From assembly GCA_048498715.1 (NCBI GenBank), contig JBEHXL010000009.1:68017-132016 (forward strand): a stretch of DNA of 64,000 bases, written 5' to 3'. Source of the DNA: Actinomycetota bacterium (lineage in GTDB: Bacteria; Actinomycetota; Acidimicrobiia; Acidimicrobiales; JACCXE01). The translations under genes and the position numbers were made by a program. The notes below the pieces were generated by a model. The model worked only from the letters and a program-made list of their open reading frames with translations. It was not told where the DNA came from and did no database searches. Below are positions 6,749 to 48,103 of this stretch, piece by piece; the first letter of the stretch is position 1, and the number at the start of each line of letters is the position of its first letter.

Positions 6749-8143
6749 ATGCGGGTGGGAAAGCTGTCGCGAGCGTTCGTATTGGCCAATCTCGTCGTCG
6801 CGGGGCTGACCGCGTGCGGCGGCAGTTCCGGTGGCACCCGGCAGGTGCTGGTCGACTACAGCCCGGACGAGGTCGCCACGTTCGTCCCGGCCGATTTCCC
6901 CGAAAAGGTCGTCGTGCGCCCCGGACAGACGATTCTGTTCAAGCAGACCTGGACCGGCGAACCGCACACCGTCACAGGCGGAACGTCGATTTCTGCGTCG
7001 TTGCGCGCCACGACCGACTGGCTTGCCTTCTTCAACGGTTACGACGAGCTGCACAGCTCGAATCCCACGATGATCGATCCGGACGACGCCGGTGACGCGA
7101 CCTGGCCGCAGCTCGTCGACGAACTGCGCCGCGCCCGGCCCGCAGCTGACGCGAACGCGACGCTGGCGGCGTACGCGCGTCTCGTCGTCGAGCACCCCAC
7201 CCTCCCGCCGATGACGAGCCCGCCCGATGTCCTGGTACGCGACGTCGTCCAGACGATCGAAAACACGTCGAATGAAGCCTTCGAAGGCGTGCCGTTCGCG
7301 TCGACGGACTTCAACGGCTTCAAGGAGAGCGTCGCTCGGCCGTGCTTCCTGAACAAGGGCGGACCGCCGGCCGACGACAACACGGCGTGCACGAAAGAGC
7401 AGCAGCGCCAACCCGCGTTCAACGGACGCCAGAGCTTCTACAACAGCGGCGTCCTCAAGTTCGAGGGTGCGCGCGGCAACGACTTCCCGGTCCGGATCGC
7501 GAAGGACGCGACACCGGGTACCTACTTCTTCTATTGCGCCATCCACGGCGCGGGCCAGTCGATGCGGGTGCAGATCGCCAAGCCGAACGCCAGCGTTCCG
7601 TCCGCGAGCGATGTGCGTCACGCCGCGCGCCGCGAGGCCGAGGCTTCCGTGAAGCCGTTGGTGCGGTTGTGGGAGCAGGCGCGTAAGACGAACCACATCC
7701 GATTCCAGGGCCAGACCCTCGACGGCCCCTTCGCCGGCATCGAGAACAACGCACGCGTGTCCGTCCTCGAGTTCGTCCCCCGTCGGTTGGAGACGAAGGT
7801 GAACGAACCGATCACCTGGACGGTCATGGGCCGTCACACAATCTCGTTCGACGTGCCGCCATACGCCCCGATCATCCAGTTCCGAACGAAGGACATCCGC
7901 TACAACCCGGTCGTGATGGATCGCGCCGGAGGGGCGCCCGCGCCGCCCGCAGAGAACGAAGAAGGCGACGTGCCCGATTACGACGCAGGCACGTACGACG
8001 GCACGGGCTTCTGGTCGACCGGCCTGGTCGGATCCAGCTCGTCCATGAAGCTGACGCTGCGCATCAGCAAGCCCGGCACCTACCCCTACGCCTGCCTGGT
8101 GCACCCGAAGATGATCGGTCAGATCGTGGTGTCGCCCTCCTAG
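6749..8143 (+). CDS. lipoprotein with two cupredoxin-like (type-1 copper) modules
   Basis: Lipobox LTAC. Ligand sets EPHTVT...YCAIHGAGQSM and GRHTISF...YACLVHPKMIG (His...Cys-x2-His-xn-Met). Confidence 0.7.
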   Translation: MRVGKLSRAFVLANLVVAGLTACGGSSGGTRQVLVDYSPDEVATFVPADFPEKVVVRPGQTILFKQTWTGEPHTVTGGTSISASLRATTDWLAFFNGYDELHSSNPTMIDPDDAGDATWPQLVDELRRARPAADANATLAAYARLVVEHPTLPPMTSPPDVLVRDVVQTIENTSNEAFEGVPFASTDFNGFKESVARPCFLNKGGPPADDNTACTKEQQRQPAFNGRQSFYNSGVLKFEGARGNDFPVRIAKDATPGTYFFYCAIHGAGQSMRVQIAKPNASVPSASDVRHAARREAEASVKPLVRLWEQARKTNHIRFQGQTLDGPFAGIENNARVSVLEFVPRRLETKVNEPITWTVMGRHTISFDVPPYAPIIQFRTKDIRYNPVVMDRAGGAPAPPAENEEGDVPDYDAGTYDGTGFWSTGLVGSSSSMKLTLRISKPGTYPYACLVHPKMIGQIVVSPS

Positions 8144-8197
8144 CTCGGCGCGAACGCGCCATGGAACCGCGCCGGAAACACAACGAGAGTCGAAGGC

Positions 8198-8803
8198 ATG
8201 ACCCTCGCACCTGCACCTTCCATTCCCGCGACCGGAACCATGCGCGTCACGCCGTGGCCCGATCCGATCATCGACTCACTCGGCCTCGACCCACGATCGC
8301 ACTACGTCGAGCGGTACTGGCTCGGCACGCTGGGGCCCTCGACGACGTGGCTGCTCCGTCGACTGGCCGCCGGTCTCGAACACGAACCGCAAGGGTTCGA
8401 CCTCGACCTGGCCGCGTGTGCTCGCGAACTCGGCCTGGGCGACAAGGGCGGACGGCACTCACCCTTCGCCCGGTCGTTGGCGCGCCTCGCGCAGTTCGAG
8501 ATTGCGCGGTGGCAGCCGTCGATCACCACACTCGAGGTTCGTCGGCGAGTGCCGCCGCTGAACCGGCGCCAGGTCATGTACCTGCCGGACGTGTTGCGAG
8601 CCCAGCATGACGACTGGCAGCGCGCCCAACTCGGTGGGGCAACCGCGGAAGTCGTGCGGCGACGATGCCACCAGCTGGCGTCGGTGCTGTTGCAGACCGG
8701 CGAGGAACGCGAAAGCGCCGAGCGGTTACTCCATCAATGGGGTTACCACCCGGCGCTTGCGTACGAGTCGGTGACCGCGGCCGCCGACGAGCTGGTCGGT
8801 TAG
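8198..8803 (+). CDS. hypothetical protein
   Basis: A 201-aa ORF with coding-like composition. No family recognised. Alternative start at ATG 8240. Confidence 0.5.
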   Translation: MTLAPAPSIPATGTMRVTPWPDPIIDSLGLDPRSHYVERYWLGTLGPSTTWLLRRLAAGLEHEPQGFDLDLAACARELGLGDKGGRHSPFARSLARLAQFEIARWQPSITTLEVRRRVPPLNRRQVMYLPDVLRAQHDDWQRAQLGGATAEVVRRRCHQLASVLLQTGEERESAERLLHQWGYHPALAYESVTAAADELVG

Positions 8804-10155
8804 CCGGCCGTCGTCGAAGTCACGGCCGGTGTCGTGGTCGACGTCACGGCCGGCGTCGTCGTCGACGTCACACCCGGTGTTGTCGTGGTCGTCGCCGGCT
8901 TGGCCGTCGTGGTCGTCGGCTTCACCGTGGTGGTCGTCTCACCCGAGCCCCCCGTGGGGTCGGGCAGGCAGCCGAGGCCGGGCAGTTCGACCGTGCCGCA
9001 CGCGGCGGCCGTCGTCGTCGTCTGCCCACGCGCCGTCGTCGTGGTCGGCTTCACCGTGGTCGTGGGCTTGATCGTGGTCGTTGCATTCGAACCGTCGATG
9101 CAGCCCGGCAGCGGCGTGGCGCAGGGAAGCTCGGAGGGCTCGAGACCGGCGACGCGGACGCCGCCGGTGAACTTGGCGTCGTAGGCGAAGAAGCTGGCGA
9201 CGTCGTCGTACTTGAACTTCTCGGCGTCGTACTGGACCACGCGCACGTGCGGGCCACCGCCCGGACCGGCGCCGATGACCATGCGGGCCTCGCCCGCGAT
9301 GCCGACGAACACGCCGCCGGTGAAGCTCGTCGAGTACGCGTAGAACTGGTAGAGCGCGTTGCCGTCGAGGTTGAACAGACGGACGTGGGGGCCACCGCCG
9401 GGGCCCGCTCCGGTGAGGACGTCGAGCTCGCCGGGAACCTGCGCGCTGCCGATGGCGACGCGAACGCCACCCGGGAACGAGCCGTAGGCCATCCACTCGG
9501 AGTACAGCTGCGGCACACCGCCGACGATCTTGAACACCTTGACGTGGGGGCCGCCGCCGGCGCCGGCGCCGGTCACGATGTAGCCGTTGGCGGCGCCGAC
9601 GAAGACGCCGCCCTTGAAGTCGCCGTAGGGCGAGAACGAGAAAACCTCTTCGAGTTGGTCGTTCACGAGGCGGTACGCCTTCACCGTCGAAGCCATGCCG
9701 GGGCCGGACCCCACAATGACTTCCTGACGGTCAGACGCGTCGACATTGCCAGCCGCCACCGTTGCGCCACCATTCGAGCCCGGGAACGGGACCGTCTCGG
9801 CGAGCACCGTGGCGTCCTTGCGCTGCACGGCAACCGTGGCGACCGATCCCGGCCCCGACGCCGTGATCAGTTCCTGCGGGCCGTCGCCGTCGATGTCGCC
9901 CGCCGCCACGTAGGCGCCGGAGCCGGCCGCGCCACGAGCGAAGAACTGCACGTCGCTCTGTGTGCCGTCCGGATTGAAGGTCTTGATGTGCGGACCGCCG
10001 CCGTCACCGGCACCGGTGAGGAACGCATCCGTGGGCGCAGCTTTCGCGCTCTGCTGGCTGATGACGCCAGACAACACCAGTGCAACTGCAGCAACCACGC
10101 CAGCCCCAGCCAGTGCGGTTCGCGACAAATTCGGTAAAACCCGTCGTAAACGCAT
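8800..10155 (-). CDS. secreted FG-GAP/VCBS-type beta-propeller repeat protein with a Thr/Pro-rich tail
   Basis: N-terminal signal sequence. Repeated blades carry G(A/S)GPGGGPH(V/I)(K/R) and DIDGDG motifs. The C-terminus has TTTVKPTTTT and TPAVTSTT repeats. Confidence 0.75.
   Translation of the reverse strand: MRLRRVLPNLSRTALAGAGVVAAVALVLSGVISQQSAKAAPTDAFLTGAGDGGGPHIKTFNPDGTQSDVQFFARGAAGSGAYVAAGDIDGDGPQELITASGPGSVATVAVQRKDATVLAETVPFPGSNGGATVAAGNVDASDRQEVIVGSGPGMASTVKAYRLVNDQLEEVFSFSPYGDFKGGVFVGAANGYIVTGAGAGGGPHVKVFKIVGGVPQLYSEWMAYGSFPGGVRVAIGSAQVPGELDVLTGAGPGGGPHVRLFNLDGNALYQFYAYSTSFTGGVFVGIAGEARMVIGAGPGGGPHVRVVQYDAEKFKYDDVASFFAYDAKFTGGVRVAGLEPSELPCATPLPGCIDGSNATTTIKPTTTVKPTTTTARGQTTTTAAACGTVELPGLGCLPDPTGGSGETTTTVKPTTTTAKPATTTTTPGVTSTTTPAVTSTTTPAVTSTTAG
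8813..8884. repeat. 3 x 24-nt imperfect tandem repeat inside the coding sequence
   Basis: The units are gtcgaagtcacggccggtgtcgtg, gtcgacgtcacggccggcgtcgtc and gtcgacgtcacacccggtgttgtc. On the minus strand they encode the T(P/G)(A/G)VTSTT repeats. Confidence 0.8.
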
Positions 10156-10181: not shown

Positions 10182-10622
10182 TTAATTCGGGTTCGGCGCC
10201 AAGGCGAAGAACAGCCGCGCCTTGCAGGTGGCGGCACCGTCGACCGTCGATTGGGCGACGCCCCAGCCGCCTTTGGAGCTCAGCCGCTCCATGGTGACGT
10301 CGAGAACGAGCTCGTCGCCGGGCACGACCATCCGCCGGAACCGCACCTCTTCGACACCGCCGAACAACGGCAGCCGGCCGGCGAAGCGCTCGTCGGAAAG
10401 CACGGCGATCGCGCCGGTCTGGGCGAGCGCCTCGAGCTGGATAACGCCAGGAAACACGGGATTGCCGGGGAAATGTCCCGAGAGAAAGTCCTCGTCACCG
10501 GTGACCTTGTAACGGCCCACGCAGCGCTCCCCCACGACCAACTCGTCGACTGAATCGACGAAACGGAACGGTGGACGGTGCGGCAGCAGGCCGACGAGGT
10601 CAGCCGAGTTCGGAAGGGTCAC
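10182..10622 (-). CDS. fabZ: 3-hydroxyacyl-ACP dehydratase
   Basis: LLPHRPPFRFVD, HFPGNPVFPGVIQLEALAQ. The GTG start overlaps the merR stop (GTGA). Confidence 0.85.
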   Translation of the reverse strand: MTLPNSADLVGLLPHRPPFRFVDSVDELVVGERCVGRYKVTGDEDFLSGHFPGNPVFPGVIQLEALAQTGAIAVLSDERFAGRLPLFGGVEEVRFRRMVVPGDELVLDVTMERLSSKGGWGVAQSTVDGAATCKARLFFALAPNPN

Positions 10623-11374
10623 GCGGGGAAGCTTGCATCAATTGCCGCGAGGGCCTTGTGCAATGCCGCGCGTTCCTCGTCGGTGCCGACATTGACGAGT
10701 TCCTTCGCCATGGCCGCAACCAGCGTCCGTTCGACGTGGTAGCCCACCAGCCACGAGGCGGCCTGCACCATCATGGAAAACGCCTCGGAGAACTCTTCGG
10801 CCGCCTCGGGATGCGGTTCGCCGTTGAGCATCGGCTCCCGCACGTATTGCAGGAACAGCTTCGATGCACCGGCGGCGAGCAGCTCGGAGGTCTCGATCTG
10901 GAGCTTGGCGACGGCCATGAACTCCTCCATCGGCACTCCGGCGCTCACGAGGGCGAGCAGCATGCGCACGGCGCGAACGTCGGCCCGGCTGTACGGACGC
11001 TCCGGATCGTCGGCGGGCAGGGGCCGCAGAATCCCCGACCCCTCGAGTGAACGCAGCATCGACGGTGGCACGCGAGCGCGCTCGGCCAGTTCCGCCCGGG
11101 TGAGGCGCTCCTCGACCGCTTCGTCGTCGGATGGGTCAGCCCACGGCGAGTCCTGTCCCGCGGCCAGCACGTCGGCGACGGCTCGGAGGGAAAGACCCTT
11201 GGCTTTGAGGGCCTTGATCTTCAGCAATCTGTCGAGGTGTCCGGAGTCGTAGACAGCAGTGCGGCCCTCGTGGCGAGGCGCCGGCAGGAGACCCTTTGAC
11301 TGATACGAGCGCACCACTTCGACGGACAGGCCGGCGGCCTCCGCGAGGGTTCGAACATCGTAGGTCATCGCCAT
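10619..11374 (-). CDS. MerR-family regulator with two tandem MerR-type HTH modules
   Basis: Module 1 is YDVRTLAEAAGLSVEVVRSYQSKGLL...YDSGHLDRLLKIKALK. Module 2 is LTRAELAERARVPPSMLRSLEGSGIL...YSRADVRAVRML. Candidate starts are ATG 11374 or 11368, or GTG 11398. Confidence 0.75.
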   Translation of the reverse strand: MAMTYDVRTLAEAAGLSVEVVRSYQSKGLLPAPRHEGRTAVYDSGHLDRLLKIKALKAKGLSLRAVADVLAAGQDSPWADPSDDEAVEERLTRAELAERARVPPSMLRSLEGSGILRPLPADDPERPYSRADVRAVRMLLALVSAGVPMEEFMAVAKLQIETSELLAAGASKLFLQYVREPMLNGEPHPEAAEEFSEAFSMMVQAASWLVGYHVERTLVAAMAKELVNVGTDEERAALHKALAAIDASFPA

Positions 11375-11481
11375 CCAATCGTAATACGGCTGAATCACAA
11401 TGTTGAACCAAAGTGTGTAACCATTACGTCAGCAACGAAGTCAGAAGGCTTCGTACGGCGAGTTGAGAGGAGGTGACGCGC

Positions 11482-12348
11482 GTGGGCGTTGCAGTTGTTT
11501 TCCCAGGTCAGGGCAGTCAAGCGACAGGAATGGGCCTTGACTTGGTCGATCTCCCGGCGTGGCACCTCGTCACCGACGCCGAAGAAATTCTTGCGACCTC
11601 ACTCGCCCCGTTGCTCCTCGGCGACGAGCTGAAGACCACGCAGGCCGCCCAAACCGCCGTGCTGCTCCACTCCCTCGTCATGTGGGAAACGCTGCGGGAC
11701 GAGATCGGCGACGTCGCCTCGTTCGCCGGGCACTCACTCGGTCAGATGACCGCTTTGATCGCCTCCGGGTCGTTGAGCTTCGAGCAGGGCGTGCAGGTCG
11801 CCGCCAAGCGGGCCGCCGTCACCCAAGCTGCGGCCGACGACAAGCCCGGCGTCATGGCCGCGCTCATGGGCGCCACCGACGAGCAGGCAGCGGCCGCCGT
11901 CGAGGGCACGCCCGACACCTGCTGGGTTGCGAACATCAACGCTCCTGGCCAAATCGTCATTGCCGGGACACCCGAAGGACTCGCGCTCGCAACAGAAGCG
12001 GCGAAAGATGCGGGCATCCGCAAAGTCATCCCGCTCGACGTCGCCGCCGCGTTCCACACGCCGCTGATGGACGACGCTGCCATCGCCTTCGCCGAGTACC
12101 TCCAGTCGATCGAGTTCGCCGCTCCGTCGGCCCCGATCGTCTCGAACGAAGACGCAATCGCCTACACCGATGGCGACGGCTGGAAGACCCGCCTCGTCTC
12201 GCACCTCGTGCAGCCCGTCCGCTGGGCCGACTGCATGGTCACGATCGATTCCCTGTGCCCCTCGTCACTGCGCGAGGTGGGCCCGGGGTCCACGCTTACC
12301 GGACTTGCCAAACGATGCCTCCCGAACTCCGAATGGGTGACTGCCTAA
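11482..12348 (+). CDS. fabD: malonyl-CoA:ACP transacylase
   Basis: VFPGQGSQ and GHSLGQ motifs. GTG 11482 lies 8 nt after a GGAGG. An alternative GTG at 11473 abuts the SD. Confidence 0.9.
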   Translation: MGVAVVFPGQGSQATGMGLDLVDLPAWHLVTDAEEILATSLAPLLLGDELKTTQAAQTAVLLHSLVMWETLRDEIGDVASFAGHSLGQMTALIASGSLSFEQGVQVAAKRAAVTQAAADDKPGVMAALMGATDEQAAAAVEGTPDTCWVANINAPGQIVIAGTPEGLALATEAAKDAGIRKVIPLDVAAAFHTPLMDDAAIAFAEYLQSIEFAAPSAPIVSNEDAIAYTDGDGWKTRLVSHLVQPVRWADCMVTIDSLCPSSLREVGPGSTLTGLAKRCLPNSEWVTA

Positions 12349-12624
12349 ATGTCTCTTGCTGTTGAACTCGCCGAATACACCGAAGTTGCGGAGAAGCTGA
12401 TCCTGGCTCCCGCCCGGGGCGTCGTTCGTGTCCTCGATCCCAAGGTCGTCACCGACCAGGGTGAGATCGTCGAGGTCGGTCAGCCCATCGCCGTCATCGT
12501 GAATTCGGGTGACGAGATCGAGGCGTGCAGCCGCTTCAACGGCTTCCTCATGGAGATGCTGGTCACGACGGGCGAGCGGGTGCGCCCGGGTCAGCCCATC
12601 GCCTGGCTCCGTACCTTCAACTAG
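12349..12624 (+). CDS. biotinyl/lipoyl-domain-like small protein lacking the acceptor lysine
   Basis: The ATG immediately follows the fabD TAA. By eye it aligns to BCCP/1.3S domains (APARGVV, GQPIAVI, GERVRPGQPIAWL). Where E-A-M-K-M is expected it reads V-N-S-G-D. Confidence 0.6.
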   Translation: MSLAVELAEYTEVAEKLILAPARGVVRVLDPKVVTDQGEIVEVGQPIAVIVNSGDEIEACSRFNGFLMEMLVTTGERVRPGQPIAWLRTFN

Positions 12625-12634
12625 GCCTCAGCAC

Positions 12635-13564
12635 ATGAGTGCGATTGTTGGCATGGGGACGGGCCTGCCTGAAGGCCGTCTCACGAACGCGGATCTCGAG
12701 CGGACGCTCGACACGACCGACGAGTGGATCGTCGAGCGCACCGGGATCAAGGAGCGCCGCCTTGCCGCCGAAGGCGAAGACGCTGTCACGCTCGCGACCG
12801 AGGCCTGCCAGGGCGCTCTGAAGAGCGCCGGTGTCTCCACCGACGAGATCGACCTCCTGATCATCGCCACGATCACTCCCCCGCGCCGCCTGCCCGCTGC
12901 GTCGGCGTACGTGCAGGACAACCTGGGTCTGCAGTGCGGCGCTTTCGACCTCGTCGCCGCGTGTTCGGGCTTCGTCTACAGCTACGTGATGGCCGACGCC
13001 TACATCAAGGCGGGTCACGCCCGTTCCGTCCTGGTCTGCGGTGCCGAGACGATCAGCTCGATCGTCGACCCGACCGACCGCGGCACGAAGATCCTCTTCG
13101 GTGACGGCGCCGCGGCCGCGGTCGTCGTTCCGTCGGCCCCCGGCTACGGCATCCTCGGCTCCGACCTCGGTTGTGATGGCTCGGCCGCCGGCATTCTCGC
13201 CATCGAGCCCGGTGAGCAGTACGCCCACATGGACGGCAAAGAAGTGTTCCGTCGAGCCGTTCGCGCCTGCATCGCTTCGGCGGAGAACGCGCTGAAGCGC
13301 GCCGGGATCCACGCCAGCGAGATCGACTACTTCGTTCCGCACCAGGCCAACACCCGCATCATCGATGCGATCATCGAGCGCATCGGTTTGGACAACGCTC
13401 AGACGGTGCGAAACCTCGATGTGTACGGCAACACGTCGGCGGCCTCGATCCCGTTGGCGCTGACCGAAGTCGAACCGAAGGACGGCGACCTCGTACTGCT
13501 GTGCGGTTTCGGCGCTGGCATGACGTGGGCCAGCGCCGTTGTGCGCTGGGGCACCGGGCTCTGA
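12635..13564 (+). CDS. fabH: beta-ketoacyl-ACP synthase III
   Basis: Active-site contexts AACSGF, HQAN, GNTSAAS. ATG at 12635. Confidence 0.9.
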   Translation: MSAIVGMGTGLPEGRLTNADLERTLDTTDEWIVERTGIKERRLAAEGEDAVTLATEACQGALKSAGVSTDEIDLLIIATITPPRRLPAASAYVQDNLGLQCGAFDLVAACSGFVYSYVMADAYIKAGHARSVLVCGAETISSIVDPTDRGTKILFGDGAAAAVVVPSAPGYGILGSDLGCDGSAAGILAIEPGEQYAHMDGKEVFRRAVRACIASAENALKRAGIHASEIDYFVPHQANTRIIDAIIERIGLDNAQTVRNLDVYGNTSAASIPLALTEVEPKDGDLVLLCGFGAGMTWASAVVRWGTGL

Positions 13565-14286
13565 TGGCAGTTGCGTTTGTGACCGGTGCCGGCGGCGGCA
13601 TCGGTCGGGCGTGTGCTGTTGCGTTGGCCAACGCGGGCCATCAGGTCGCGGTCGGCTTCGGCGGCAACAAAGACGGCGCCGCGGAAACCGCGTCGCTGTG
13701 CGGCGGCGTCGCCATCGAAGTCGACGTCGCTGATTCGGCCTCCGTGGATTCTGCGTTCAAGCAGATCGAAGAGCAGCTCGGCGCGGTCACCATCCTCGTG
13801 AACAACGCAGGTGTCACCGGAGACGGCCTTCTGCTTCGTATGAAAGACGATGACTGGAACAAGGTGCTGCGAGTGAACCTCGACGGCGCGTTCCACACGA
13901 TCAAGCGCGCCACGCCGGGGATGATGAAGGCCCGCTTCGGTCGCATCGTCAACATGGGCTCGGTCGTCGGCCTCACCGGCAGCGCGGGCCAGGTCAACTA
14001 CGCGGCGGCCAAGGCCGGCCTCGTCGGCCTCAGCCGATCCGTTGCCCGTGAGCTCGCCTCGCGCAACGTCACCTGCAACGTCGTGGCCCCCGGCCCGATC
14101 GTCACTGCCATGACCGACGTGCTCAGCGAGGATCGTCTCGCCGCTATCACCGACGCCGTGCCGCTCGGTCGCATGGGCACCGTCGACGAAGTCGCCTCCA
14201 CCGTCGCCTTCCTGTGCAGCGATGGTGCGGCCTACATCACCGGCGCGGTCATCCCCGTCGATGGCGGCCTCGGGCTGGGCCACTAG
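13564..14286 (+). CDS. fabG: 3-oxoacyl-ACP reductase (SDR)
   Basis: TGAGGGIG, NNAG, YAAAK. The ATG overlaps the fabH TGA (TGATG). Confidence 0.9.
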   Translation: MAVAFVTGAGGGIGRACAVALANAGHQVAVGFGGNKDGAAETASLCGGVAIEVDVADSASVDSAFKQIEEQLGAVTILVNNAGVTGDGLLLRMKDDDWNKVLRVNLDGAFHTIKRATPGMMKARFGRIVNMGSVVGLTGSAGQVNYAAAKAGLVGLSRSVARELASRNVTCNVVAPGPIVTAMTDVLSEDRLAAITDAVPLGRMGTVDEVASTVAFLCSDGAAYITGAVIPVDGGLGLGH

Positions 14287-14325: not shown

Positions 14326-14568
14326 ATGTCCCGTGACGAAGTCCTCGCCGTGATGCGTGATGCCGCCGTCGAACTGCTCAAGATCGACCCGGCCAAGGTC
14401 ACCGAAGAGGCCACCTTCGCCGAAGACCTCGAGGCCGACAGCCTCGACGTCGTTGAGCTCGTGATGGCGCTCGAAGAGAAGCTCGACGTCTCGATCCCGG
14501 AGGAAGAGCTCGAAGGCATCAAGACCGTGGGCGAGGCGCTCGACGTCATCGCCGCCAAGGTCGCGTAG
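14326..14568 (+). CDS. acpP: acyl carrier protein
   Basis: An 80-aa acidic protein with [12 protein letters not shown] (DSL phosphopantetheine site). SD aaggaga upstream. Confidence 0.95.
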
Positions 14569-14583
14569 GACCCCGGAGTAGCT

Positions 14584-15819
14584 ATGGCCGACCGTCGACG
14601 CGTTGTCGTGACCGGCATGGGCGTGAAGACGCCCGCCGGCAACACCATCGAATCGTTTTGGGAAACGCTGCTGGCCGCGGCTGGAACGGCCGCGGGCCCG
14701 ATCGAGCGCGTCGACGTGTCGGACTGGCCCGTCGGCTTCGCCTGCGAAGTCAAGGGCTTCAACCCTGAGGACTACATCGAGGCCAAGGAGGTGCGCCGCG
14801 CCGACCGCGTCGCGCAGCTCGGCTACGCCGCCGCCGTCGACGCCTTAAAGCAGGCCGGCGATCTCGGACTCGATCCCGCTCGGATCGGCGTCGTCGCCGG
14901 TACGGGTGTCGGTGGTCTCGAGACGCAGGAGCGTGAGGAGATCGTCGTCTACCAGAAGGGCAAGACCCGCGTGTCGCCCTTCCTCGTGCCGATGATGATG
15001 ACCAACGCGACCGCCGCGATGATCTCGATGGGCCACGGCCTGCGAGGTCCGAATCTCTGCATCGCAACCGCCTGCGCGGCGGGCACGCACGCGATCGGTG
15101 AGGCGGCACACATGATCCGCTACGGCGCGGCCGACGCGATCGTCGCGGGTGGATCCGAAGCGGCGATCACGCCGGTCGGCATGGCTGCGTTTGCTCGCAT
15201 GGGTGCGCTGTCGACGCGCCGCGACGATCCAGCGGGAGCGTCGCGGCCGTTCGACGCCAGCCGCGACGGGTTCGTCATGGGTGAGGCGGGTGCCTTCGTC
15301 GTGCTCGAGGAGTACGAGCACGCCGTTGCCCGCGGGGCGACGATTCTCGGCGAGATCCTCGGCTACGGCCGCAACGCCGACGCCCATCACATCACGGCGC
15401 CCCGGCCTGACGGCGGCGGCATGATCGGCGGGATGGAAGCCGCGATCGCCGACGCCGGCCTCACGCCCGCCGACATCGGCAGCATCAACGCGCACGGCAC
15501 GTCGACGCCGCTCAACGACTCGGCGGAGTCGCAGGCGATCTACAAGGTGTTCAACGGCGAGGCGCCTCCCGTCGTGTCGACCAAGGGTGTCACCGGCCAC
15601 TGCATCGGCGCCGCCGGCGCGGTCGAGTGCATCGCCGGTCTATTGACCGCGAACACCGGATTGGTGCCGCCGACCGCGAACCACACCGAAAAAGGTGAGG
15701 GCATCGAAGTCGACGTCGTGTCGGGTTCGCCGCGTGAGGTTGGCCAGAAGCCGGTGTTGTCGAACTCGTTCGGCTTCGGCGGTCACAACGGCACGCTTGT
15801 CGTCGGCCCCACCCGCTAA
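14584..15819 (+). CDS. fabF: beta-ketoacyl-ACP synthase I/II (KasA/FabF type)
   Basis: VVVTGMG, IATACAAG (Cys), HGTSTP, GHCIGAAG, FGFGGHN. Confidence 0.92.
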   Translation: MADRRRVVVTGMGVKTPAGNTIESFWETLLAAAGTAAGPIERVDVSDWPVGFACEVKGFNPEDYIEAKEVRRADRVAQLGYAAAVDALKQAGDLGLDPARIGVVAGTGVGGLETQEREEIVVYQKGKTRVSPFLVPMMMTNATAAMISMGHGLRGPNLCIATACAAGTHAIGEAAHMIRYGAADAIVAGGSEAAITPVGMAAFARMGALSTRRDDPAGASRPFDASRDGFVMGEAGAFVVLEEYEHAVARGATILGEILGYGRNADAHHITAPRPDGGGMIGGMEAAIADAGLTPADIGSINAHGTSTPLNDSAESQAIYKVFNGEAPPVVSTKGVTGHCIGAAGAVECIAGLLTANTGLVPPTANHTEKGEGIEVDVVSGSPREVGQKPVLSNSFGFGGHNGTLVVGPTR

Positions 15820-15825
15820 ATCGCT

Positions 15826-17190
15826 TTGACCAACCTGCTCGCGCTCGGCACGGCGCGCCTCGGCGGCGCCCAGGCGGAGATTCGCGAGTTGGGCGGCCAG
15901 AAGGTCGGCTACTTCCGTCTCGCGGACGAGCCTGACGACGGCGACGACGCCGTCGGTCGTGGATCAATCGGACCCGACGAAGCGGAGTCCGTCGCACGAC
16001 TGATCCGCCTCGCGACCGATACCGGCATGCCGATCGTGGGCGTGCTCGCGGTCTCGGGCACCGACGTACGCCACGGCGTTGCGTCACTGGTCGCGTGGGG
16101 GCGTATCGCGTCGGCGCTGGTCGACGCATCGGGCATCGTGCCGATCACCATGGCCGTCATCGGTCCGTGCGCGGCTGGTCCCTCGCTGCTCGTCGGCATT
16201 GCCGACGCCGTGGTCTTCACGTCGGACTCGACGGCGTTCGTGTCGGGCCCCGCGGCGGTGAGCGGCATGACGGGCGAGACGATCTCGCCTCTGGATCTGG
16301 GCGGCCCGAACGTGCATGCCGTCGAGAGCGGCATCGCGGCGATGGTGGCCGACGACGAAGACAGCGCCATCGACGCGATCTCGCTGATCCTCGCTCACCT
16401 GCCCGCGAACAATCACGAGCTCGCACCGTGGGCTCTCCATCACGACGAACTCGATCGTGACTGCGAAGCGAAGGTCCCCGATTCGCCGAACGCGGGCTAC
16501 GACGTTCGCAAGGTCATCGACGAAGTGTGCGACCGCGGCTCGTGGTTCGAGCTGTGGGCGCGTCATGCGGCCAACTCCGTCGTCGGCTTCGCGCGCGTGG
16601 ACGGCTATCCGGTTGGCGTCATCGCGAACCAGCCCGGTTGGCTGGCGGGCACGCTCGACATCGAGGCGTCGACCAAGGCGGCACGCTTCGTACAGCTGTG
16701 CGACGCGTTCAACGTGCCGCTGCTCACCTTCGTCGACACGCCCGGTTTCCAGCCGGGGAAAGACCTCGAATGGCGCGGCATGATCCGCCACGGAGCCAAG
16801 CTCGTGTTCGCCTACGCGCAGGCCACCGTGCCGCGCGTGTGCGTCATCCTCCGCAAGGCCTACGGCGGCGCCTACATCGTCATGGACTCGCGGGGCATGG
16901 GCAGCGACTTCGTCGTGTCGTGGCCGCAAGCCGAGATCGCGGTGATGGGAGCCGGCGGCGCCATCGGTCTTTTGTACGGACGACGCGATCTACCTGCGGA
17001 AGAGATGCAGCGCCTCACCGAGGAATACCAGGCCGACTACTGCACGCCGCGCGTCGCATCGGAGCGCGGGTACGTCGACATGGTGATCGAGCCGAAACAG
17101 ACGCGACGCGTCGTGGTCGGCGCGTTCGAAGCACTGCGTTCAAAGCGTGAGCACCTGCCCAAGCGTCGCCACGCCAACCCGCCCCAGTAG
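15826..17190 (+). CDS. accD6: acyl-CoA carboxylase carboxyltransferase (beta) subunit, AccD6-like
   Basis: Two-lobed carboxyltransferase similarity (GPCAAGPS..., FVDTPGFQPG, RKAYGGAY). TTG start. It occupies the same operon position as mycobacterial accD6. Confidence 0.8.
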   Translation: MTNLLALGTARLGGAQAEIRELGGQKVGYFRLADEPDDGDDAVGRGSIGPDEAESVARLIRLATDTGMPIVGVLAVSGTDVRHGVASLVAWGRIASALVDASGIVPITMAVIGPCAAGPSLLVGIADAVVFTSDSTAFVSGPAAVSGMTGETISPLDLGGPNVHAVESGIAAMVADDEDSAIDAISLILAHLPANNHELAPWALHHDELDRDCEAKVPDSPNAGYDVRKVIDEVCDRGSWFELWARHAANSVVGFARVDGYPVGVIANQPGWLAGTLDIEASTKAARFVQLCDAFNVPLLTFVDTPGFQPGKDLEWRGMIRHGAKLVFAYAQATVPRVCVILRKAYGGAYIVMDSRGMGSDFVVSWPQAEIAVMGAGGAIGLLYGRRDLPAEEMQRLTEEYQADYCTPRVASERGYVDMVIEPKQTRRVVVGAFEALRSKREHLPKRRHANPPQ

Positions 17191-17201: not shown

Positions 17202-17975
17202 ATGCTCCTCGAAGGCAAGAAGATCGTCGTCACTGGTGTCGCGGCGGAAAGCTCGATCGCGTTCACCGTCGCCCGCCTCGCTCAGGAACAAGGCGCCGAG
17301 ATCGTGCTCACGTCGTTCGGCCGCATCATGTCGCTCACCCAGCGCGTCGCGAAGCGTCTCCCGTCGACGCCCGACGTGCTCGAGCTTGACGTGACCGATC
17401 CGTCGCACGCTCCTGCGCTCGCGGCCGAGCTCGACAAACGGTGGGGTCGTGTCGACGGCGTCGTGCATTCGCTCGCCAATGCGAACCCCGAGACTTGCCT
17501 TGGCGGCGACGTGTTCCGTGCGCCGTTCGAGGACGTTGCGATGGCCGTGCACGTCTCCGCGTTCTCGCTCAAGGAACTCGCCTCTGCGTTCCTGCCGCTC
17601 ATGCAGAAGGCGGGCGGCGGTTCCGTCGTCGGCCTCGACTTCGACGCCACCAAGGCGTTCCCCATGTACAACTGGATGGGCGTCACCAAGGCCGCGCTGG
17701 AGTCCCTCAATCGCTACCTCGCGCGTGACCTCGGCCCGTCGAAGGTGCGTTGCAACCTCGTCGCCGCTGGCCCGCTGCGTACACTGTCAGCCAAGTCGAT
17801 CCCCGGCTTCGATCAGTTCGAAGACATCTGGTCCGAGCGCGCGCCGCTGGGTTGGGATCTCAAGGACCCCGAGCCCGCAGCCCGCGCCGTCATCGCCCTG
17901 TTGAGCGACTGGTTCCCCGCCACGACAGGCGAAATCGTCCACGTCGACGGCGGCTTCCACGCCGTAGGCGCCTAA
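17202..17975 (+). CDS. fabI: NADH-dependent enoyl-ACP reductase (InhA/FabI)
   Basis: GKKIVVTGV...SIAF, YNWMGVTKAALES (Tyr/Lys), VHVDGGFH. Confidence 0.9.
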   Translation: MLLEGKKIVVTGVAAESSIAFTVARLAQEQGAEIVLTSFGRIMSLTQRVAKRLPSTPDVLELDVTDPSHAPALAAELDKRWGRVDGVVHSLANANPETCLGGDVFRAPFEDVAMAVHVSAFSLKELASAFLPLMQKAGGGSVVGLDFDATKAFPMYNWMGVTKAALESLNRYLARDLGPSKVRCNLVAAGPLRTLSAKSIPGFDQFEDIWSERAPLGWDLKDPEPAARAVIALLSDWFPATTGEIVHVDGGFHAVGA

Positions 17976-33509: not shown

Positions 33510-35120
33510 CTAGTGACTCGGTGCCAGAGAAGCATCAGCGGCCGACCGGGCGTGATAGCTCGAACGGGTCAGCGGTGAGCACTCGACGTGCGCGAAGCCG
33601 AGCGCTTCGGCATCCGCCTTCAACGACGCGAACTCCTCGGGCGTCCACCACCGGGCGACGGGCAGATGGTGACCGGTGGGCCGCAGGTACTGACCGATCG
33701 TCGCGATGTCGACGCCGACCGACCGCAGATCCGTCAACGCACCCACCACCTCATCGTGCGTTTCGCCGAGCCCGACCATGAGACCGGACTTGGTGACGAG
33801 ACCGGCGTCTTTGGCCCGCGCCAGCACCGCCAGGCTGCGGGCGTATCCGGCGGACGGGCGCACAGCGCGTTGCAGCCGGGCAACGGTCTCGAGGTTGTGG
33901 TTCAACACGTCGGGACGAGCGTCGAAGATCGTCGCGAGCGACAGGACGTCACCCTTGCAGTCGGAGATGAGCAGCTCGATGTTGGTTTCGGGTGCACGCT
34001 CACGAATTGCGGCAACGGTCTGCGCAAACGCGCCGGCTCCCCCATCGGCCAGGTCGTCACGAGCGACACACGTGATGACCACGTGCTTGAGGCCGAGCTC
34101 GAGCGTGGCCTCGGCCACGCGGCGCGGCTCATCAGGATCGAGCGCCTCCGGCTTGCGGGTATCAACGAGGCAGAATCCGCACGCACGCGTGCACCGCTCG
34201 CCGTTGATCATGAACGTGGCCGTGCCGTCGTTCCAGCAGTCGTAGATGTTCGGGCAGCCCGCCTCTTCACACACCGTCACGAGGCCGTTGCTGCGCATCG
34301 TCTTCTTCAGCGCCTGGTACTCGGGGCTGAAATCGGCCTTGACCCGCAGCCACTCCGGCTTGCGCTGCTCGATGGGCAGCGACGTCGAGATGTCGACACC
34401 GGCTGCGTTGAGCCGGCCCAGCAATCGCACCGGCGCTGAGCTTCCCTCCGAGTGCGCCCGACTGAACGCGCTCAGATCGTCGGGACGGTGCACCCATGCG
34501 ACGTCGGCGCGATCGGTCGTGCCGAACAGCCGCGCCACGACATCGGAAACCTGCTGCAGCGACGCATCCACGCCTTCGTTCGCCAGCGATGTGACCGGGT
34601 AGTCCGGAATGCCGCAGGGCACGATGTGGTCGAACCACGACAGGTCGGTCGACACGTTCAGGGCGAAGCCGTGCATGCTGCGCCCCCGACTGACTCGCAC
34701 GCCGATCGCGGCGATCTTGCGGGGCGCGCTGTTCACGTCGAGCCAAACGCCCGGGAACCCGTCGAATCGCGATGCGTTCGGCAGTCCTAGTTCTGCGAGC
34801 GCGTCGATCAGTACCTGCTCGATGCGGTGCACATGGTTCGGGATCGCATCCGTGCCCATCTGGACGTTCATGACCGGATAGCCGACGAGCTGGCCCGGGC
34901 CGTGGAAGGTCACGTCGCCGCCACGGTCCGTCCGCACGAACGCGGCGTCGACGGTCTCGGGCGACACGAGGATGTTCGCCGGATCGGTGCGGACACCGAG
35001 CGTGTAGGTAGGTGGGTGCTCGACCAGCAGTAGCGCGTCGTCGTCGGCCCTCTCCCACATGGCGCGCATGAGCGCGTGCGCCTCGCTGTACGCGACGCGT
35101 CCGAGCCAGCGCGTTCTCAC
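33510..35120 (-). CDS. lipB-lipA: single-polypeptide fusion of octanoyltransferase (LipB) and lipoyl synthase (LipA)
   Basis: A continuous 536-aa ORF. The N-terminal half is LipB-like (VEHPPTYTLG, RGGDVTFHGPGQLVGYP, PCGI). The C-terminal half is LipA-like (KPEWLRVK, CEEAGCPN, CTRACGFC radical-SAM motif). Confidence 0.9.
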   Translation of the reverse strand: MRTRWLGRVAYSEAHALMRAMWERADDDALLLVEHPPTYTLGVRTDPANILVSPETVDAAFVRTDRGGDVTFHGPGQLVGYPVMNVQMGTDAIPNHVHRIEQVLIDALAELGLPNASRFDGFPGVWLDVNSAPRKIAAIGVRVSRGRSMHGFALNVSTDLSWFDHIVPCGIPDYPVTSLANEGVDASLQQVSDVVARLFGTTDRADVAWVHRPDDLSAFSRAHSEGSSAPVRLLGRLNAAGVDISTSLPIEQRKPEWLRVKADFSPEYQALKKTMRSNGLVTVCEEAGCPNIYDCWNDGTATFMINGERCTRACGFCLVDTRKPEALDPDEPRRVAEATLELGLKHVVITCVARDDLADGGAGAFAQTVAAIRERAPETNIELLISDCKGDVLSLATIFDARPDVLNHNLETVARLQRAVRPSAGYARSLAVLARAKDAGLVTKSGLMVGLGETHDEVVGALTDLRSVGVDIATIGQYLRPTGHHLPVARWWTPEEFASLKADAEALGFAHVECSPLTRSSYHARSAADASLAPSH

Positions 35121-36505
35121 TAGGTGAGCTCAGCCTCCCAGTCGCGAGTCTCCAAGATGTCCCGAATCTTCGCGAGGAAAGCCGCTGCGTAAGCGCCGTC
35201 GAAGGCGCGGTGATCCCACGAGAGGCACAGATTGCCGACGTGATGGACCGCGATGGCGTAACCACCGTCCGGCAGCGGCACGGCCACGGGTTGCGGCTTG
35301 ACGCCGTCGGTCGACAGGATCGCCACTTGCGGTTGGTTGATGACCGGACCGGTGATCAGGGTGCCATAACCACCGGCGTTGGTGATGGTGAAGGTGCCGT
35401 CGCTGATGTCGTCGGCGGAAAGCTTCTTGGCCTTCGCGCGTGAACCCAGGTCGCCGATCTCACGAGCGAGTGCTCGCAGTCGCTTGGTGTCAGCGTCATG
35501 CACGACCGGCACGATCAAACCCTCGAAGTTGAGGTCGACAGCAACGCCGATGTTGACGTAGTTGTGCACGATCAGTTCGTCGTTGCCGACCGACGAGTTC
35601 ACGTTGGGGAACTCGCGCAACGCGTCGACAACCGCACGCGCGATGAAGGGCAGGTACGTGAGACTCGCGCCTTCCTGCGCCTTGAACGCGTCCTTGCGCG
35701 CCGCGCGCACGACCTCGACGTTCTCGTAATCGACTTCGGTCGCAACGAGCGTGTGGGCTGAAGTCGCCAACGAGCGCACCATGTGCTCGGCGGTCCGACG
35801 GCGGATGTTCGAGAACGGAATCGTCGTGTCGCGCTCGCCGGCGCGCGGTGCCGGTGCGCTCGGCGCCGCCGGCGCAGCGGGAGCTGGCGCCACGCCAGCC
35901 GCAGGGGCCGCCGGAGTTGCCGGGGCTGCCGGCGCCGCGGTTGCACCACCTGCGGCGCGCTGGTCGAGCGCAGCGAGTACGTCGTTGCGCGTGATGCGAC
36001 CGCCGGCGCCAGTGCCGCTGATCGTCGACGGGTCCAGATTGTTCTCCGAGAGGAGCTTGCGCACGACCGGCGACAGCACGTTGCTCGGGCCACCACCGTT
36101 CTGTGACGGGGCCGCAGCGGCCGGAGCCGGTGCGGGCGCGGGCGCAGGTGCGGGCGGCGGGGTCTCGGCGACCGGTGTCGGCACGACGGCTGGCGCCTCG
36201 GGAGGGGCGGGCGTGGGCTCGGGCTGTGCTTCAGCGACCGGCGCGGCGGGCGCCGGCGCGCCCGCCTCGGACGCATCGCCGACGGTCGCGAGCACGGCAC
36301 CGACCGGCACGGTGTCGCCTTCAGGCACGACGATCGACGTGATCACGCCGCTCACCGGCGAGGGCACCTCGGAGTCGACCTTGTCGGTCGAGACCTCGAA
36401 GAGAATCTCGTCTTCCTTGACGGTGTCGCCGACCTGCTTGGCCCAGCGGGTGATGGTGCCCTCGGTGACGGTTTCACCGAGCTGCGGCATCGTGATGTCA
36501 GCCAT
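35120..36505 (-). CDS. sucB: dihydrolipoamide acyltransferase (E2) of a 2-oxoacid dehydrogenase complex
   Basis: Lipoyl domain (EVSTDKVDSEVPSP), Ala/Pro linkers, an E3-binding domain and a catalytic domain (DHRAFDG). Confidence 0.92.
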   Translation of the reverse strand: MADITMPQLGETVTEGTITRWAKQVGDTVKEDEILFEVSTDKVDSEVPSPVSGVITSIVVPEGDTVPVGAVLATVGDASEAGAPAPAAPVAEAQPEPTPAPPEAPAVVPTPVAETPPPAPAPAPAPAPAAAAPSQNGGGPSNVLSPVVRKLLSENNLDPSTISGTGAGGRITRNDVLAALDQRAAGGATAAPAAPATPAAPAAGVAPAPAAPAAPSAPAPRAGERDTTIPFSNIRRRTAEHMVRSLATSAHTLVATEVDYENVEVVRAARKDAFKAQEGASLTYLPFIARAVVDALREFPNVNSSVGNDELIVHNYVNIGVAVDLNFEGLIVPVVHDADTKRLRALAREIGDLGSRAKAKKLSADDISDGTFTITNAGGYGTLITGPVINQPQVAILSTDGVKPQPVAVPLPDGGYAIAVHHVGNLCLSWDHRAFDGAYAAAFLAKIRDILETRDWEAELT

Positions 36506-37922
36506 GGAGGCCCCTTCCGGTGAGTGCGATCACCGTCTCGCCGAACAGTTCCGAGAGGCTCGGGTGCGGCTGAATGAATGCGGACACTTCTTCGACCGTC
36601 GCTTCCCAGTTCACGGACAGATAGCCCTGACCCAGTTGCTCCGTTACCCACGGACCAGCCATGTGCACACCGATGATCGTGCCGGCCTTGCCGTTGGCGT
36701 CCTTCTCGGCGATGACCTTCACGAGTCCGTCGGAGTCGCCGATGATCAGCGCACGGCCGTTGCCGGTGAAGCGATGCTTCGATACGACCACGTCGATGCC
36801 CGCGTCTTTGGCCGCCTGCTCGGTGTAACCGACGAATGCGACCTCGGGGTAGGTGTAGATGCACCACGGGACCTTGGCGTAGTCGATCGGCACGGCGGGC
36901 TCGCCGAGGATCGTCTTGATGACGAGCATGCCCTCGGCGAAGCCGACGTGGGCGAGTTGTGGGTGCACGCGCAGCCCGTCGACAGAAATCAGGTCGCCCA
37001 GCGCGTAGACGTTGGGCACGTTCGTGCGCATCCACGGGTCGACCTTGACGAAGCCGCGCTCGTCGACGGCCACCGGGCTGCCTTCGCCGAGCAGGCCGTC
37101 AGTCAACGGGCGACGGCCGACCGACATCACGATCACGTCGGCGGTGACGGACTCGCCATCGCCGAAGCTGACCACAGTCTGCTTGCCGTCGGCCGTCGGC
37201 GTGTGCCCCTTGACCTCGACGCCCGTGCGCACGTCGATGCCGCGCTTCTTGAACGACCGCGCGACCACATCGGCGGCATCCTTGTCGCAACCGGCGAGGA
37301 TCTGCGGCAGAAACTCCAGCACGGTGACTTGGCAGCCGAGATCACTCAGCGAACTGGCGAACTCACAGCCGATCGCACCTCCGCCGACCACCACGGCCGA
37401 CGACGGCAGCGCGTCGAGCATGAGCACCTCGTCCGAGGTGAGCACGTACTTGCCATCAATGTCGAAGCCCGGAAGGGTGCGAGGCACCGAGCCGGCGGCG
37501 AGCAGCACGCTGGTGCCCTGGAGTTCGACGCCGTCGGCCTCACCGCCGCTGACGCGCACGATGCCGTCGGCATCGAGTCGACCCGTACCGATGTAGGTCG
37601 TGATCTTGCGCTGCTTCATCAGGCCGGCGAGGCCCTTCCACAGCCCGTCGACGACCTTTTGCTTGCGGGCCTGGCTCGTCGCGAACTCGATCGTCGGCTG
37701 ATCGCTGTTGATGCCGAAGTCCTTGGCGTGACTCACCGTCCGGTAGACAGTCGCCGTCTCCAGGTACTCCTTGGCAGGGATGCAGCCGCGGTGGAGGCAC
37801 GTGCCGCCCACCTTGTCCTTCTCGACGACTGCGATGTTCAGGCCTGCGGATGCGCCGTACAACGCGGCGGCATAACCCGCTGGACCTCCGCCGATGACGA
37901 CTACGTCGAAACTCTCTGGCAC
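36498..37922 (-). CDS. lpd: dihydrolipoyl dehydrogenase (E3)
   Basis: VVIGGGPAGY and the redox disulfide GGTCLHRGCIPAK. GTG start. Its 3' end overlaps the E2 start by 8 nt. Confidence 0.92.
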   Translation of the reverse strand: MPESFDVVVIGGGPAGYAAALYGASAGLNIAVVEKDKVGGTCLHRGCIPAKEYLETATVYRTVSHAKDFGINSDQPTIEFATSQARKQKVVDGLWKGLAGLMKQRKITTYIGTGRLDADGIVRVSGGEADGVELQGTSVLLAAGSVPRTLPGFDIDGKYVLTSDEVLMLDALPSSAVVVGGGAIGCEFASSLSDLGCQVTVLEFLPQILAGCDKDAADVVARSFKKRGIDVRTGVEVKGHTPTADGKQTVVSFGDGESVTADVIVMSVGRRPLTDGLLGEGSPVAVDERGFVKVDPWMRTNVPNVYALGDLISVDGLRVHPQLAHVGFAEGMLVIKTILGEPAVPIDYAKVPWCIYTYPEVAFVGYTEQAAKDAGIDVVVSKHRFTGNGRALIIGDSDGLVKVIAEKDANGKAGTIIGVHMAGPWVTEQLGQGYLSVNWEATVEEVSAFIQPHPSLSELFGETVIALTGRGLHG

Positions 37923-47575: not shown

Positions 47576-48076
47576 TCAGTCGAACATCGAACCTTGTTCG
47601 TAGCTGTCGTTTTGTCTGGTCGGCGGCGGCGCCGTGGCGCCCTGCTGCGACAGTGCAGCCGCGACGGCTAACTGGTCGACCTTGTCGTTCATGCGATCAC
47701 CCGAGTGCCCTTTCACCCACTTGAAGGTGATCTCGTCCCGACGCTGCAGGTACAGCTTGATCAGCGGCTCCCACAGATCGCGGTTGGCGACGGGCTTCTT
47801 CGCCGAATTGAGCCAACCCCGCTTGATCCAGCCGTCCCACCACTTGTCGCGGAAGCAGTTCACTACGTAGGTCGAGTCACTCACGATCGTGATCGGCCCG
47901 TCGAAGGCTTCGAGGGCGCGCAGCACGGCCATCACTTCCATGCGCTGATTGGTGGACGGATTCTCGGCCCCCGAAGCCCATTCGTCATCCAGAGAGGCCC
48001 ACGCCCAGCCCCCGGGACCAGGGTTTCCACTACACGCGCCGTCGGTATACACAGTCTTCACAGAGCCACTGATCAT
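47576..48076 (-). CDS. rnhA: ribonuclease HI
   Basis: [35 protein letters not shown]...ND..D. ATG at 48076. The rest of the 633-aa ORF is antisense to aceE. Confidence 0.88.
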
Positions 48077-48103
48077 TACCCGTCGGTAACGCTCGTAGCA
48101 TTG

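Follow-up and report, generated by a model that had tools for sequence, protein, structure and literature searches.

What does a biotinyl-carrier fold contribute to fatty-acid synthesis when the lysine that would hold its cofactor is missing? The question is raised by a small gene between fabD and fabH, which encode malonyl-CoA:acyl carrier protein (ACP) transacylase (MCAT) and ketoacyl-ACP synthase (KAS) III, in an Acidimicrobiales genome (Actinomycetota bacterium, JACCXE01). The window, as the whole stretch of DNA analysed is called here, comprises 64,000 nucleotides (nt) of contig JBEHXL010000009.1 (assembly GCA_048498715.1, positions 68,017 to 132,016 of the forward strand). Its open reading frame (ORF) at 12349-12624 on the plus strand (+), ORF91, encodes a 91-amino-acid (aa) protein of the biotinyl/lipoyl fold that lacks the attachment lysine and is referred to below as X. 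The gene is conserved, coupled or fused to fabD, and adjacent to fabH. Tentatively, X is best read as a cofactor-free, flexibly tethered docking module, or accessory, of the initiation step that involves FabD and FabH.

A biotinyl/lipoyl fold without the attachment lysine

The fabD gene (11473-12348, +) specifies a 291-aa protein with the GHSLG active-site motif (Acyl_transf_1, E = 4e-24), and its TAA occupies 12346-12348. The ATG of ORF91 starts on the following base, in frame with fabD and separated from it by that TAA alone (junction 12346-12351), with a Shine-Dalgarno-like GGGTGA 8 nt upstream. The ORF91 stop codon lies 10 nt before the ATG of fabH at 12635 (12635-13564, +; 309 aa, ACP_syn_III and ACP_syn_III_C). 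ORF91 is a real gene on which purifying selection acts. The GC content of its first, second, and third codon positions (0.69, 0.40, and 0.80) is similar to that of the neighbouring genes, and its ratio of nonsynonymous to synonymous substitution rates (dN/dS) is 0.14-0.19 against the closest loci; fabD gives 0.15-0.18, and the flanking fab genes overall give 0.08-0.30. In relatives, the gene is conserved with intact frames.

Family-level domain profiles give X low scores. Pfam Biotin_lipoyl (PF00364) yields a borderline, partial match (23.3 bits, cut-off 22.1), HlyD_3 covers 38 residues (24.5 bits, also partial and only slightly above its threshold), and the NCBIfam model RND_mfp reaches 18 bits against a cut-off of 94.9. 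As a control, the E2 lipoyl domain encoded in the window (35120-36505, minus strand, -) scores 80 bits and has STDKVD at the corresponding place, reading ...VSTDKVDSEVPSP.... A phmmer search of PDB sequences matches X over its full length to the biotin carboxyl carrier protein (BCCP) of P. horikoshii (2d5d), with AVIVNSGDE opposite LVLEAMKME. A family profile of 53 diverse members also finds the P. horikoshii BCCP over its full length (E = 4e-8) and the lipoyl domains of E. coli pyruvate dehydrogenase (PDH) E2 (E = 1.9e-11), where Gly stands opposite the DKA lysine (GDKA). The AlphaFold2 (AF2) model of X has a predicted local distance difference test (pLDDT) score of 84.8 and is all-beta with eight strands, residues 1-11 being disordered. 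In a Foldseek search of the PDB with this model, the top matches are the BCCPs 2evb and 5gua, with E of about 1e-5 (1.5e-5), template-modelling (TM) scores normalised to the target of 0.81-0.86, and 35-37% identity. The assignment of X to the biotinyl/lipoyl barrel-sandwich fold, with the attachment lysine lost, is therefore solid.

The tip of the beta-hairpin, where the biotinyl- or lipoyl-lysine would be, is occupied by Gly54 (codon GGT, 12508-12510, +). Three independent alignments place Gly54 at this position, and the hairpin reads VNSGD where BCCP has EAMKM. Over the best 150 family representatives, the column is Gly in 91 of the 140 residues present and is never Lys. With no attachment lysine, X is a degenerate carrier domain that would carry no cofactor. 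The protein consists of a domain of ~75 aa preceded by only ~15 residues, without the N-terminal region that interacts with biotin carboxylase (BC) and without a flexible linker. An earlier note, made from the letters of this DNA alone, had described a 91-aa biotinyl/lipoyl-like mini-protein directly after fabD and before fabH, with Gly54 at the biotinyl-lysine position; its position, its fold (by Foldseek and profile searches), and its missing lysine are all borne out.

The family to which X belongs is large, and its conservation is unevenly distributed. A word-indexed search returns 17 close homologues in which S53-G54 and GERVRxGQPIAWLR are invariant, and an exhaustive profile search returns 541 cluster representatives (50% identity) at E ≤ 1e-3, 123 of them at E ≤ 1e-10. 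The hairpin is the most variable part of the family and is shortened or partly deleted in many members, including most fusions to FabD. The first strand and the last strand instead hold the residues whose conservation is specific to the family (G8-E9, E15-R16, F26, SPF.G.LMG.LA, and GERVRxGQPxAWLR), with ER..VAP..G.F as the first-strand motif among the 150 representatives. Biotinyl domains have both terminal strands, N and C, at the end opposite the lysine hairpin. Thus, the surface that X conserves is not the end that a mimic of BCCP would be expected to conserve. A separate subgroup has an SGEKHP hairpin with Lys at +2 from the canonical site (P0056, P0062, P0063, P0069, P0079, P0091, P0102, P0136, P0137, and P0141); a locus of this subgroup, L091 (915-1268), lies between a glycosyltransferase and an NAD-epimerase gene, outside a fab operon.

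A scan of one genome per species with the single pattern GERVRxGQP[VI] matches X in 119 species-level genomes. The best 80 of these 119 are Acidimicrobiia or unclassified Actinomycetota metagenome-assembled genomes, with Iamia and the isolate Aquihabitans sp. G128 (NZ_CP077604, locus L071) among them; the Burkholderiales label of one contig probably reflects mis-binning. Scans of Pfam and NCBIfam contain no model dedicated to the family. In public databases, homologues are mostly named "hypothetical", and some are named "biotin carboxyl carrier protein" or even "AcrA". The annotation can be corrected, since pipelines apply the BCCP name to proteins that are unable to carry biotin. Searches of the literature on lysine-less BCCP-like proteins of bacteria, on an Acidimicrobiia fab operon, and on a barrel-sandwich domain attached to FabD gave nothing relevant; the only related publications concern the plant BADC (biotin attachment domain-containing) proteins, non-catalytic subunits of the plastid heteromeric acetyl-CoA carboxylase. 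Non-catalytic parts with a lysine-less biotinyl fold are already a known kind, represented by plant BADC and by the lipoyl-like domains of membrane-fusion proteins. No published description of the X family or of a FabD-associated barrel-sandwich domain was found.

Coupling to fabD, fusion to FabD, and adjacency to fabH

A tblastn survey with the window proteins finds the order fabD-X-fabH-fabG-acpP-fabF-CT-fabI in ~75 of 80 species-level genomes, often with a divergent MerR gene; CT denotes the acyl-CoA carboxylase carboxyltransferase gene and its product (beta subunit, PccB/AccD6-like), which is 454 aa long in the window (15826-17190, +). A metagenomic homologue with 51% identity has the identical gene order. 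Of the 86 loci in which the sequence extends 600 nt or more beyond X, fabH follows directly in 80, and in 66 of those 80 the X stop is within 15 nt of the fabH start, with a 4-nt overlap in 37. At the other junction, 3 of 75 loci have a true fabD-X fusion, and among the 72 unfused loci there are 65 in which the start of X overlaps or adjoins the stop of fabD: 27 are of the ATGA type (-4), 14 of the TGATG type (-1), 17 have a stop followed directly by ATG (0), and 7 are at +1 to +3, although at both junctions the nearest-start-codon rule biases such distances to small values, the overlap motifs being nonetheless explicit in the sequences. The X start is translationally coupled to the fabD stop. 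Stop-codon read-through of fabD into X was considered and rejected, as the in-frame class is not enriched (27, 14, and 17 for -4, -1, and 0), which is the pattern of ordinary coupling. In the window itself, a single substitution in, or read-through of, the TAA at 12346-12348 would recreate a fusion of FabD with the domain like that at locus L084.

The fabD-X-fabH segment is retained where the rest of the operon changes. In the divergent loci L087 and L094/L095, fabD-X-fabH is kept and acpS takes the place of CT; in L094/L095, X has 4-nt overlaps on both sides. Because fabD-X-fabH survives in operons that lack CT, the constant core is fabD-X-fabH rather than a pairing of X with CT.

In some lineages, the two proteins form a single chain. 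At least 12 independent 50-90% clusters (P0041, P0045, P0047, P0080, P0109, P0114, P0132, P0161, P0163, P0169, P0170, and P0179) contain a complete FabD that carries X at its C-terminus. Among genomic fusions, that of L084 sits at the orthologous site of an operon that is otherwise the same, and that of L032 is outside any fab operon. The linker between the two domains is ~15 aa long and disordered. For the natural fusion P0045 (397 aa), an AF2 model from a 135-row alignment, read from pLDDT and the predicted TM score (pTM), gives pLDDT of 95-98 for FabD, 91-97 for X, and below 50 for the linker (307-315), with pTM of 0.80. As a coarse reading of the model, this fits two rigid domains on a flexible tether, with X not packed on FabD. 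In a Foldseek comparison with solved structures, the FabD portion turns out to be a full MCAT (target-normalised TM ~0.9), and no solved MCAT has such an extra domain. Other partners also occur: X is fused behind an Sfp-type phosphopantetheinyl transferase (PPTase) directly upstream of fabH, and it is fused ahead of an AMP-binding enzyme in a type II polyketide synthase/aryl-polyene-like cluster, a fusion that is less certain because the contig has split genes.

A proposed docking role and its rivals

We infer, tentatively, that X would serve as a non-catalytic accessory of FabD in a fabD-X-fabH initiation module of type II fatty-acid synthesis (FAS) in Acidimicrobiia and related Actinomycetota. 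It is made together with FabD through translational coupling at the fabD stop codon, and in some lineages is held covalently on the FabD C-terminus by the disordered linker of ~15 residues. The putative docking face is the barrel end that carries both termini (E15-R16, R77, R79, W86, and R88), with the hairpin left unused. Through this face, X would hold FabD, or other ACP-loading enzymes in other lineages, beside the next initiation enzyme. The target would most likely be FabH or its ACP substrate, because the fabD-X-fabH core survives the loss of CT and because each of three distinct fusion partners is an enzyme that loads ACP. In mycobacterial FAS-II, FabD has already been described as an interaction hub in contact with FabH and with the Kas enzymes (PMC2765072).

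Several observations weigh against this docking role, beginning with the start-codon bias in the junction distances. X-family domains are also fused to cyclic nucleotide monophosphate (cNMP)-binding domains in contexts outside FAS, and stand-alone paralogues lie between a glycosyltransferase and an epimerase and between a BTAD regulator and a phosphoesterase; another follows a sugar-modifying gene (L041). At L036, a paralogue (7968-8264) overlaps the start of a CT paralogue (8218-9612), with fabD and fabH not nearby. Across the family, the module is not FabH-specific. Some of the metagenomic "fusions" could be sequencing errors, and the P0045 model shows no confident interdomain contact, which leaves unexplained how an unfused X stays with FabD. 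In a distance-matrix (mirror-tree) test with raw and partial correlations over 42 loci and the window, the partial r of X is highest with CT (0.52), followed by FabD (0.42) and FabH (0.37), and is negative with ACP; however, CT correlates at ~0.5 with every gene, so this result does not discriminate.

Two of these contexts have further features. At L088 (906-1634) and L089 (866-1612), the X-family domain lies behind a cyclic-nucleotide-binding domain and another cNMP-binding protein is encoded next, which hints that a cAMP/cGMP sensor can use the lysine-less module for its output. The L036 pair, the sole direct pairing of X with CT that was seen, follows two short-chain dehydrogenase/reductase genes and a luciferase-like monooxygenase gene.

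Type II FAS is generally pictured as a collection of enzymes that diffuse freely and have no structural subunits. A conserved extra component that is coupled or fused to FabD and encoded before FabH, across a whole and mostly uncultured actinobacterial class, suggests that a dedicated protein-protein module organises initiation in these organisms. In a bolder version, which is rather unlikely, X would be the docking arm of an initiation "metabolon" that tethers FabD (in other lineages, a PPTase or a starter-activating adenylating enzyme) to FabH/ACP and possibly to CT, and the cNMP fusions would be cAMP-responsive regulators of the same target. Malonyl units would then be handed on without diffusing, and X would be a counterpart of BADC that evolved independently in bacteria; no accessory subunit of a dissociated type II FAS would have been described before it. 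If its partner were identified, X would join plant BADC as a degenerate carrier domain that has been turned into an adaptor, here in bacteria, and it could become a handle for engineering malonyl flux.

An alternative that retains an adaptor function directs it toward the carboxylase. X could be a BADC-like adaptor or decoy that binds the CT of the operon or an alpha subunit with BC and BCCP domains that is encoded elsewhere, either tethering FabD to the source of malonyl-CoA for channelling or competing with, or "gluing", the true BCCP. The closest relatives of X in sequence and structure are the BCCPs of acyl-CoA carboxylases and decarboxylases, the CT gene shares the operon in most Acidimicrobiia loci, and the L036 overlap and, weakly, the top distance-matrix correlation point the same way. 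In plants, the BADCs provide a precedent, being lysine-less BCCP homologues that act as non-catalytic subunits of acetyl-CoA carboxylase (PMC11926652). However, X lacks the N-terminal region by which both BCCP and BADC engage BC, and the PPTase, AMP-binding, and cNMP fusions are left unexplained. In holoenzyme structures, BCCP presents its lysine hairpin to the BC and CT active sites. In the X family, this hairpin is the least conserved element, and many members, above all the FabD fusions, have a shortened version of it. Some fabD-X-fabH operons also have no CT.

The absence of other carboxylase genes near CT does not call for a decoy. As the earlier note had claimed, neither a BC nor a BCCP gene neighbours CT: no BC or other ATP-grasp protein and no BCCP were found among the large ORFs of the window, and X is thus not linked to accC. 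The mycobacterial fabD-acpM-kasA-kasB-accD6 operon likewise has a CT gene without BC or BCCP nearby, the alpha subunit being encoded elsewhere. Because the accD6 situation is the same, an isolated CT gene is normal in actinobacteria and not anomalous. Overall, the carboxylase-directed reading is unlikely, and a BCCP decoy is less likely than a FabD/FabH docking module. Of the "adaptor or regulatory decoy" suggested in the earlier note, the adaptor part thus survives, redirected toward FabD and FabH by the coupling, the fusions, and the position of fabH in 80 of 86 loci; the decoy part is weakened by the variable or deleted hairpin, the CT-less operons L087 and L094/L095, and the accD6 precedent.

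A second alternative holds that X is a general oligomerisation or stabilising domain with no specific third partner, which would self-associate or stabilise whichever protein it is joined to or co-translated with (here FabD), its position before fabH being inherited gene order. The diversity of its partners and neighbours (FabD, PPTase, AMP-binding, cNMP-binding, glycosyltransferase, and BTAD regulator) favours this view, as do the identity of the C-terminal motif across all of those contexts and the lack of specific docking on FabD in the AF2 model. However, coupling to both fabD and fabH is held down to ~35-40% identity and also in otherwise rearranged operons, the dN/dS of X is as low as that of FabD, and the fused FabD, as a complete MCAT fold, has no evident need of a stabiliser. 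A general oligomerisation or stabilising role is unlikely.

Much less probable is an unconventional carrier, in which X would be a swinging arm with a group on another residue, such as the hairpin Ser53 in the clade of the window sequence or the +2 Lys of the SGEKHP subgroup. The flexible fusion linker does resemble those of true carrier domains, S53-G54 is invariant in the 17 close homologues, and the one subgroup has its +2 Lys. However, family members vary between L, S, P, and G in column 53 and have either Gly or a deletion in column 54, so that no tip nucleophile is conserved, and no modifying enzyme is conserved beside X. A Ser53-modified carrier was rejected, as position 53 is not conserved family-wide. 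Finally, ORF91 is short and its Pfam scores are marginal, but the chance that it is a spurious open frame in GC-rich DNA separating fabD and fabH is practically nil given its gene-like codon-position GC and low dN/dS, its occurrence in 541 cluster representatives and 119 genomes, its confident AF2 fold, and its natural fusions.

Among known systems, plant BADC is the closest analogue of X, as judged from its description. The two are alike in a BCCP-like fold and sequence from which the biotinylation motif and lysine are absent, so that neither would be biotinylated, and both would be non-catalytic components tied to the opening steps of fatty-acid synthesis (PMC11926652). BADCs are plant and algal proteins of ~250 aa that bind BC and BCCP and are described as unique to the plant enzyme (PMC11926652). 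X differs as a 91-aa bacterial single domain that is coupled or fused to FabD and adjoins fabH rather than BC or BCCP. Orthology is unlikely, given that X is distributed in bacteria and consists of one domain in 91 aa.

With BCCP itself (AccB; P. horikoshii 2d5d/2evb and E. coli 1bdo), X shares the barrel-sandwich hybrid fold and the (A/S)P..G and G..V..GQ fold motifs in both halves. Unlike BCCP, X has Gly for the biotinyl-lysine and no (A/V)MKM, lacks the N-terminal BC-interaction region and the Pro/Ala linker, is not encoded beside accC, carries ER...AWLR motifs at the opposite barrel end, and is fused to FabD rather than to BC.

The AccE/PccE epsilon subunits are, like X, small non-catalytic actinobacterial proteins tied to malonyl-CoA supply. 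Genes for epsilon subunits adjoin carboxyltransferase genes. X has a different fold and is separated from CT by fabH, fabG, acpP, and fabF; with no ACC_epsilon Pfam match at E ≤ 1 and a gene that is not beside CT, X was rejected as an epsilon subunit. Actinobacterial epsilon subunits are cited as "glue" subunits (PMC11926652). The lipoyl-like domains of HlyD/RND proteins have the same lysine-less fold, there used for protein-protein contacts only. Membrane-fusion proteins, however, are periplasmic and multi-domain (with a beta-barrel and a membrane-proximal domain) and have an alpha-hairpin inserted at the tip, whereas X is a stand-alone cytoplasmic protein of a fab operon. An HlyD-type adaptor was likewise rejected, given the partial HlyD_3 match, the sub-threshold RND_mfp score, and a 91-aa length without multi-domain architecture.

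The rest of the operon and other features of the window

Downstream of fabH, the operon continues with fabG (3-oxoacyl-ACP reductase, 13564-14286, +; Pfam/NCBIfam matches), whose ATG overlaps the fabH TGA, acpP (acyl carrier protein, 14326-14568, +; PP-binding match), and fabF (KAS II, 14584-15819, +; profile match). The statement in the earlier note that the operon ends with the carboxyltransferase needs correction, since CT is second to last and is followed by the final gene, a fabI/InhA-like enoyl-ACP reductase (17202-17975, +; NF005908 score 400 bits, cut-off 299). The CT gene has a TTG start 6 nt past the fabF stop, and its N-terminus is ~65 residues shorter than those of PccB-type beta subunits and ~20 shorter than that of M. 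tuberculosis AccD6. Its closest solved relatives are PccB-like (E = 1e-116), not AccD6 (E = 4e-77).

Divergent from fabD is a gene for a MerR-family protein with two MerR_1 matches (10619-11398, -), which is probably the regulator of the fab operon. It is kept 5' of fabD in many Acidimicrobiia loci, including L003 and L084, and the L084 protein has a faint Rv1828_C match in precomputed Pfam results. The regulators described from fab operons of mycobacteria and Streptomyces are different.

Elsewhere in the window, a single 535-aa protein (33510-35120, -) combines LipB-type octanoyl/lipoyl transferase and radical S-adenosylmethionine (LipA-like) domains. Its gene lies directly downstream of those for a 2-oxoacid dehydrogenase E2 with a genuine DK lipoyl domain (35120-36505, -) and an E3 (36498-37922, -); it seems that the lipoylation machinery has been fused and placed together with the substrate on which it acts. 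A 1,238-aa polypeptide (43801-47520, -) carries two branched-chain-amino-acid-type permease domains and two ATP-binding cassette (ABC) ATPase domains, which amounts to a Liv-type transporter in one chain, and its gene adjoins that of a periplasmic binding protein (41969-43792). A PDH E1 homologue of 1,031 aa (47705-50800, +) has no Pfam match at E ≤ 1e-5 over its first ~270 residues, which may be an unusual N-terminal extension.

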